From Escherichia coli (GTDB taxonomy: Bacteria > Pseudomonadota > Gammaproteobacteria > Enterobacterales > Enterobacteriaceae): a stretch of 64,000 nucleotides of DNA. Of this stretch, positions 45,280-46,206 are shown piece after piece. Under the pieces are notes generated by a model. It was not told the DNA's origin and made no database searches. It saw nothing but the letters and a program-made list of their open reading frames with translations. Location of the stretch: assembly GCF_016026235.1 (NCBI RefSeq), contig NZ_CP065613.1. The stretch is one strand, 5' to 3'. The position numbers and the translations under genes are program-made. Positions within the stretch are counted from its first letter, which is position 1. Every line of letters begins with the position of its first letter.

Positions 45280-46206
45280 CTACAGCGCCCGCCAGCACCG
45301 GAGCTCACGTCCGTCCTCCCTTATTGTTAATGATTGCCGGACTTCACATCCGTGGGTTGCCAGAGGGCAACGTTCGTAGAAAAAACAGCCTTGCGGCAAC
45401 GTGCGGTTTCCTGGCAGTTCCGTTTTACGTAATGCCCATTCTTCCTCCAGCGGTTTATCAATGGCGGGGAGGGAATCCAGCAATAATCGGGTGTATGGAT
45501 GTGCCGGAGCCGTTAGCACCTGTTGCGCGTCGCCCAGTTCTACAATCTGCCCGAGATACATCACCGCCACCCGATCGCTCATATGACGTATCACCGAGAC
45601 ATTGTGTGAAATCAGCACATAAGTCAGCCCGTGATTTTCCTGTAGCGTTACCAGTAAATTGAGGATCTGCGCCTGCACGGAGATATCCAGCGCCGAGGTT
45701 GGCTCATCAAGCACAATCACGTCAGGCTGCGAAGAGAGTGCTCTGGCAATGGCGATGCGTTGCCGCTGCCCGCCGGAGAACGCATGAGGCAGGCGGTCGA
45801 GATACTCCGGACGAATACCCACCTGCACAGCCAGCTCCTCTGCCAACGCTCACCGCTGTTGTTCACTACTACGCTTAGCTATCCAGAGCGGTTCTGTGAT
45901 GATGCGCCACACCGGTAAGCGCGGATTAAGCGAAGAGAGCGGGTCCTGAAACACCATCTGCATAATGCGTTGTGAGCCTGAACGGATGTACTGCCCGTGG
46001 CTCGGTTGCAGCATGCCCATTAAAAGCTGTGCGAGGGTGCTTTTGCCGCAGCCTGACTCGCCGACGATCCCTAAGGTTTCACCACGGCGGATCTGTAAAT
46101 CAATACCATTAATGGCATGAACATGTTCCGTAGTTTTACCAAGCCAGTTTTTACGGGCCGGGAAATTGATATGGACGTCGCGTAACGTTAATAACGTGTC
46201 AGACAC
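45280..46206 (-). pseudogene. ddpF: D,D-dipeptide ABC transporter ATP-binding protein with in-frame TGA (nonsense)
   Basis: Two same-frame ORFs (45850..46206 and 45280..45846) separated only by TGA at 45850-45852 and one further codon; the motifs of one ABC ATPase are split across them (Walker A GESGCGKST upstream, LSGGQRQR and Walker B downstream). Confidence 0.8.

Follow-up and report, generated by a model that had tools for sequence, protein, structure and literature searches.

A nonsense mutation in ddpF that probably preceded a 7,356-bp deletion across the dosC-ddp region in an Escherichia coli lineage

The DNA analyzed here (hereafter the window, 64,000 nucleotides of Escherichia coli contig NZ_CP065613.1) carries a copy of ddpF on the minus strand at 45280..46206. 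When positions 46206 to 45280 were translated on this strand, 308 codons were obtained with a single internal stop at codon 119. This stop is a TGA on the coding strand, corresponding to TCA on the plus strand (45850-45852), and the frame is open on either side of it, as the sequence-only reading had described. The gene is the ortholog of K-12 ddpF by both sequence (98.3% nucleotide identity over 927 bp) and synteny, since the order osmC-ddpF-ddpD is kept as in K-12, with osmC downstream and an overlapping ddpD upstream. A conceptual full-length DdpF contains the Pfam domains ABC_tran (residues 33-171, E = 4.5e-29) and oligo_HPY (residues 222-287, E = 7.7e-21). The K-12 and window genes are thus alike in length, neighbors and domain content, whereas the window gene has TGA in place of CGA at codon 119 and lies beside a ddpD without a start codon, with ddpXABC and the promoter upstream of ddpX gone.

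A codon-by-codon comparison showed that codon 119 is CGA (Arg) in both K-12 and the sister strain FDAARGOS_943, whose complete genome is the nearest to the window. Since both carry CGA, a single C-to-T transition (CGA to TGA; G to A on the plus strand at 45852) accounts for the stop, in line with the earlier view of the TGA as a nonsense mutation that a single substitution separates from the orthologs' sense codon. Apart from codon 119, the ddpF of the window differs from that of FDAARGOS_943 only at codon 302, and R119* is the only lesion in the gene. The stop falls inside ABC_tran. Walker A (residues 49-56) and the Q-loop region (84-89) lie N-terminal of it, and the signature motif (143-147), Walker B (163-168) and the H-loop (199-202) are all C-terminal of it. 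Since the TGA separates Walker A from the signature motif, the interrupted frame is a pseudogene of its family. Given the conserved architecture of ABC ATPases, the DdpF ATPase, and hence the DdpABCDF D-Ala-D-Ala importer, should be inactive.

From narZ to ydeN, window and K-12 are collinear apart from one point, 47166, where positions 13887 and 21243 of the K-12 locus are joined. The segment lost at this point, measured in the closest intact relative, is 7,356 bp long: it includes the final 596 bp of dosC, takes in dosP, ddpX, ddpA, ddpB and ddpC whole, and reaches 19 nt into ddpD. The earlier claim that ddpXABC had been deleted therefore holds for all four genes, while the loss extends further than the claim named, into the 3' end of dosC, dosP and the 5' end of ddpD. 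The junction (47166..47167) shows a microhomology of a single T and no insertion sequence (IS). An IS-mediated deletion was considered and rejected, as the junction contains neither an IS nor an IS scar and only the 1-nt overlap. Among 5,426 complete E. coli genomes this junction did not occur, and a literature search yielded no report of the ddpF R119* allele or of this deletion. The known promoter of the ddp operon lies upstream of ddpX and is RpoN/NtrC-dependent (PMC8743547); it is absent from the window, having been removed by the deletion.

What remains of ddpD (47166 to 46199, minus strand) has lost the start codon together with the rest of its first 19 nt, and its frame is otherwise open. 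Of dosC, the first 787 nt are left (47952..47166), after which the frame runs out of phase into ddpD and ends at a stop at 47146-47148. The resulting ORF of 268 aa (47146..47952, minus strand) contains only the Protoglobin and DosC_2nd domains, so that the globin and middle domains are retained and the GGDEF domain is gone. The deletion consequently also destroys the oxygen-sensing c-di-GMP module formed by DosC and DosP, the former having lost its GGDEF domain and the latter being absent altogether, arguably a larger phenotypic loss than that of ddp. In one other member of the deletion-bearing clade (SRR23545530, contigs L023 and L006), an additional G-to-A change at the equivalent of 47715 ends the frame of the dosC remnant at about codon 80 and splits the remnant into ORFs of 79 and 172 aa. 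Here secondary decay did follow the deletion, although in dosC and not in ddpF.

An in-frame TGA in an otherwise open frame could be recoded, in which case DdpF would still be made at full length. Of the stop codons of E. coli, TGA is the leakiest, with termination that is somewhat leaky, and it is also the codon for selenocysteine; a true selenocysteine gene, fdnG, lies in the same window with its TGA at codon 196 (36313-36315). Positions 33000 to 48500 of the window were scanned with Rfam at E<=1, with fdnG as the internal positive control. The SECIS element of fdnG was recovered as Rfam SECIS_3 at 36310-36368 on the plus strand (84.3 bits, E = 3e-19), beginning 3 nt 5' of the TGA and running downstream. 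In contrast, no SECIS was detected at this threshold near the TGA of ddpF, either directly 3' of it or elsewhere in the gene. The orthologs in K-12 and FDAARGOS_943 carry arginine at this codon, neither cysteine nor selenocysteine, and the TGA allele had no exact match in the approximately 4,265 complete E. coli genomes that contain this stretch of ddpF. The 60 nt 3' of the TGA folded no better than shuffled sequences (z = +0.49), a measure that does not discriminate, as the true fdnG SECIS also folded no better than its shuffles (z = -0.53). Taken together, the scan with its positive control and the ortholog codons ruled out recoding at ddpF, so that the earlier dismissal of selenocysteine was borne out; the chance that selenocysteine insertion or efficient readthrough restores the full-length protein appears very slim. 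Even slighter, to the point of being negligible, is the chance that the source record contains an error of sequencing or assembly, as a lone base difference would in principle allow. Against this stands the fact that the same base is found across many independent assemblies and runs, the 118-aa product being present on 92 contigs and in 150 collection blocks. Identical sequence with the TGA was found in the independent assemblies and runs GCA_900449985.1, GCA_001907545.1, SRR23545530 and SRR30892832, the first of which matches the window at 100% identity. The nonsense allele is therefore reproduced in independent data and is no artefact of sequencing or assembly.

The sequence-only reading had further proposed that the TGA arose as secondary pseudogenization, after the deletion had removed ddpXABC and left the remaining genes without selection. 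Relatives of the window were found by an exact-sequence look-up of the 118-aa N-terminal DdpF product; three contigs (L013, L024 and L025) that end at or next to codon 119, in which the 118-aa product is a contig-end artefact, were excluded as TGA carriers. The same product was also present on contigs that keep dosC, dosP and ddpXABCD. Two of these, L020 (SRR13627093) and L016 (GCA_902503985.1), belong to the window's own clone haplotype, with 0-3 SNPs over approximately 8-13 kb. On the ddpF side, L020 and L016 show 1 and 3 SNPs, respectively, compared to the window in approximately 6 kb, and the 1.7 kb compared on the dosC side contains no SNP in either, whereas other lineages show 26-34 and 82-92 mismatches over those two flanking stretches. 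Both contigs carry the TGA together with an intact copy of every gene from dosC to ddpD, and R119* in ddpF is the sole lesion in this region. Re-acquisition of the operon by recombination in L020 and L016 was ruled out, since the 7,356-bp segment in both is the clade's own haplotype: it differs from that of FDAARGOS_943 at 4 bases (99.95% identity) and from those of other lineages at 88-104 positions. The near-identity to the sister strain indicates that the segment is native to the clade.

The polarity of the SNPs was set with K-12 as the outgroup. Derived bases at 35973 and 37749, together with the TGA, group the window with L016 and leave out FDAARGOS_943, while derived bases at 40696 and 44537, together with the deletion, define a nested group consisting of the window and L023; this local phylogeny covers approximately 8-13 kb with a handful of SNPs. 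The TGA is present in every deletion-bearing contig that reaches codon 119, and among the look-up contigs no genome was found that combines the deletion with CGA at this codon. Because the TGA occurs with an intact, native operon in L020 and L016, which share the window's haplotype, and because the deletion group is nested, the stop appears to predate the deletion, and the most parsimonious order read from these sequences starts from an intact operon with CGA, in which the TGA arose first and the deletion second. L020 by itself suffices to place the TGA before the deletion. The structural deletion at the ddp locus is thus not the older of the two lesions, and the earlier proposal had the order reversed.

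One feature is discordant with the TGA grouping. An 18-bp tandem duplication (TATTGTGGGAATTTAATT x2) at approximately 44645-44680, in the intergenic region between bdm and osmC, is common to the window, L020 and FDAARGOS_943 and is missing in L016 and in other E. coli. The conflict calls for loss of the duplicate in L016 by slippage, for recombination or for a TGA that arose twice. Of these, slippage is likely, as a tandem duplicate is easily lost in this way. The TGA is recurrent in E. coli, occurring on three other haplotypes, and might conceivably have had an independent origin within the clade as well.

A deletion that came first would have taken the only known promoter of the operon along with the permeases and the binding protein, and the remnant would then have been unselected and free to accumulate a TGA. 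Decay of this kind is real in one member of the clade, as shown by the stop in the dosC remnant of SRR23545530. However, the closest relatives carry the TGA in a native and intact operon, the deletion clade sits inside the TGA clade, and the combination of deletion and CGA was not encountered; we therefore consider this order of events unlikely, with only a small residual probability. The TGA itself raises a different question, since the same CGA-to-TGA change was found on three other ddpF haplotypes, namely L017, L019 (with L007, which matches L019 at most variable sites) and the K-12-like L021 and L022, of which L022 differs from K-12 ddpF by R119* alone. In L017, L019, L021 and L022, which have long flanks, the rest of the operon is intact. 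Occurrence on at least four distinct haplotypes, each time as the sole lesion of an otherwise intact operon, could reflect positive selection for a recurrent loss-of-function allele, that is, adaptive inactivation of D-Ala-D-Ala import and not neutral decay. Several points weigh against such selection. Conditioned as it was on precisely this product, the look-up drew on a collection of billions of proteins, so that recurrence of CGA to TGA is expected, and other truncated forms of DdpF are found in the public data at counts similar to the 92 contigs of the R119* product: one of 99 aa, which stops before W100, on 73 contigs, and one of 78 aa, which stops before Q79, on 41. Moreover, CGA codons number just two in ddpF, where 33 transition-to-stop changes are possible. 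TGA-bearing 59-mers representing both haplotypes at the polymorphic position 45834 gave zero exact matches among complete E. coli genomes; the allele is therefore rare in the complete-genome set, and exact 59-mer matching shows no more than that. On the basis of the CGA and transition counts, the conditioned look-up, the similar truncation counts and the 59-mer result, we read R119* on the other haplotypes as probable independent recurrence of a transition-prone nonsense change. Adaptive inactivation is accordingly given little weight, somewhat less than a deletion-first history, and we attach equally little to the broader idea that codon 119 is a recurrent target, whether through repeated positive selection against D-Ala-D-Ala import or as a leaky allele tunable by readthrough.

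The dN/dS values against K-12 were 0.048 for ddpF and 0.077 for ddpD, as low as those of the neighboring intact genes (0-0.075). These low values indicate that both genes were constrained until recently and that their loss is recent, and they are uninformative about so recent an event itself. The relaxed selection on ddpD and ddpF that the sequence-only reading had assumed was hence not apparent, as would be expected if the loss were very recent. The operon as a whole is dispensable in E. coli generally. Absence of ddpFDCBAX from phylogroup B2 has been reported (PMC2617782). In our survey, 1,134 of the 5,426 complete E. coli genomes had no ddpF, and the sister strain FDAARGOS_943 carries an independent nonsense mutation in ddpB, W286* (TGG to TAG). 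The ddpF of the window is a recent nonsense pseudogene that represents ordinary decay of a dispensable operon.

Further lesions were observed elsewhere in the window. Only the first 1,297 nt of narZ are left (29621-30917, minus strand), abutting an IS, and this remnant has a nonsense mutation of its own, W232* (TGG to TAG), with the stop at 30222-30224; together with the ddp locus, it makes two truncated operons in the window whose remnants carry a point lesion. The adjoining element is an ISEc60 (IS4-like) at approximately 28318-29637, with a transposase ORF of 433 aa at 28349-29650, and joins the cybB side to the truncated narZ. At this site the K-12 genes from ydcL (at least) to narZ are absent, amounting to approximately 39 kb or more, and FDAARGOS_943 keeps approximately 47 kb between the corresponding points on the cybB side and in narZ. 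In the spacer between fdnI and yddM, sub-threshold Rfam matches to naRNA4 and ES036 were obtained at 40392-40473, resembling REP-element repeats, and the K-12 alignments overlap there, so that 40341-40552 is aligned twice.

Related genomes show comparable alterations. FDAARGOS_943 has approximately 38 copies of ISEc60 as well as IS1, IS600 and several pseudogenes in the region. In its stretch NZ_CP065615.1 1226000-1262000, maeA and pqqL are frameshifted, digH contains an internal stop, and two IS1 insertions are present, one of them between maeA and sra with a 9-bp target duplication. In L020, a 2-bp deletion at the equivalent of 41510-41511 splits adhP into ORFs of 173 and 148 aa. The R119* lineage of ERR9955204 (L017 and L010) has an insertion of approximately 6.8 kb between ddpF and osmC that encodes a LysR regulator, CoA-transferase subunits, a thiolase, a 3-hydroxyacyl-CoA dehydrogenase, a transporter-sized ORF and a short-chain dehydrogenase. 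Genome reduction in Shigella and enteroinvasive E. coli has been described (Hawkey et al. 2020, PMC7373316), and the window resembles it in that dispensable metabolic and transport genes have been hit by nonsense mutations, IS-associated truncations and deletions, although the ddp junction differs in being free of an IS and in showing only 1 nt of microhomology. By this likeness, we infer that the source genome may be that of an enteroinvasive E. coli.

Our preferred explanation, to which we assign a probability of about 0.88, is point inactivation of ddpF by R119* followed by the 7,356-bp deletion in a sub-lineage. A C-to-T transition would have turned the arginine codon 119 (CGA) of ddpF into TGA in an IS-rich, gene-losing E. 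coli lineage in which dosCP-ddpXABCDF was still intact, and the stop would have severed the ABC ATPase into a half with Walker A and the Q-loop and a half with the signature motif, Walker B and the H-loop. Later, a sub-lineage that includes the window would have lost the 7,356 bp that reach from within dosC to the start of ddpD, probably by illegitimate recombination at the 1-nt microhomology, and this deletion would have removed the ddpX promoter together with the remainder of the transporter.

For the annotation of this strain, our results mean that ddpF, ddpD and dosC are to be treated as pseudogenes or remnants. The story suggested by the single genome, in which the deletion came first and decay followed, was overturned by near-identical relatives, which is a lesson for the method. 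The importance of the finding beyond annotation is small. With these lesions the strain would have lost the uptake and hydrolysis of D-Ala-D-Ala, in addition to the DosC/DosP oxygen-sensing c-di-GMP module, and the locus illustrates cleanly, on a small scale, how bacterial genes usually decay, with point inactivation followed by deletion.
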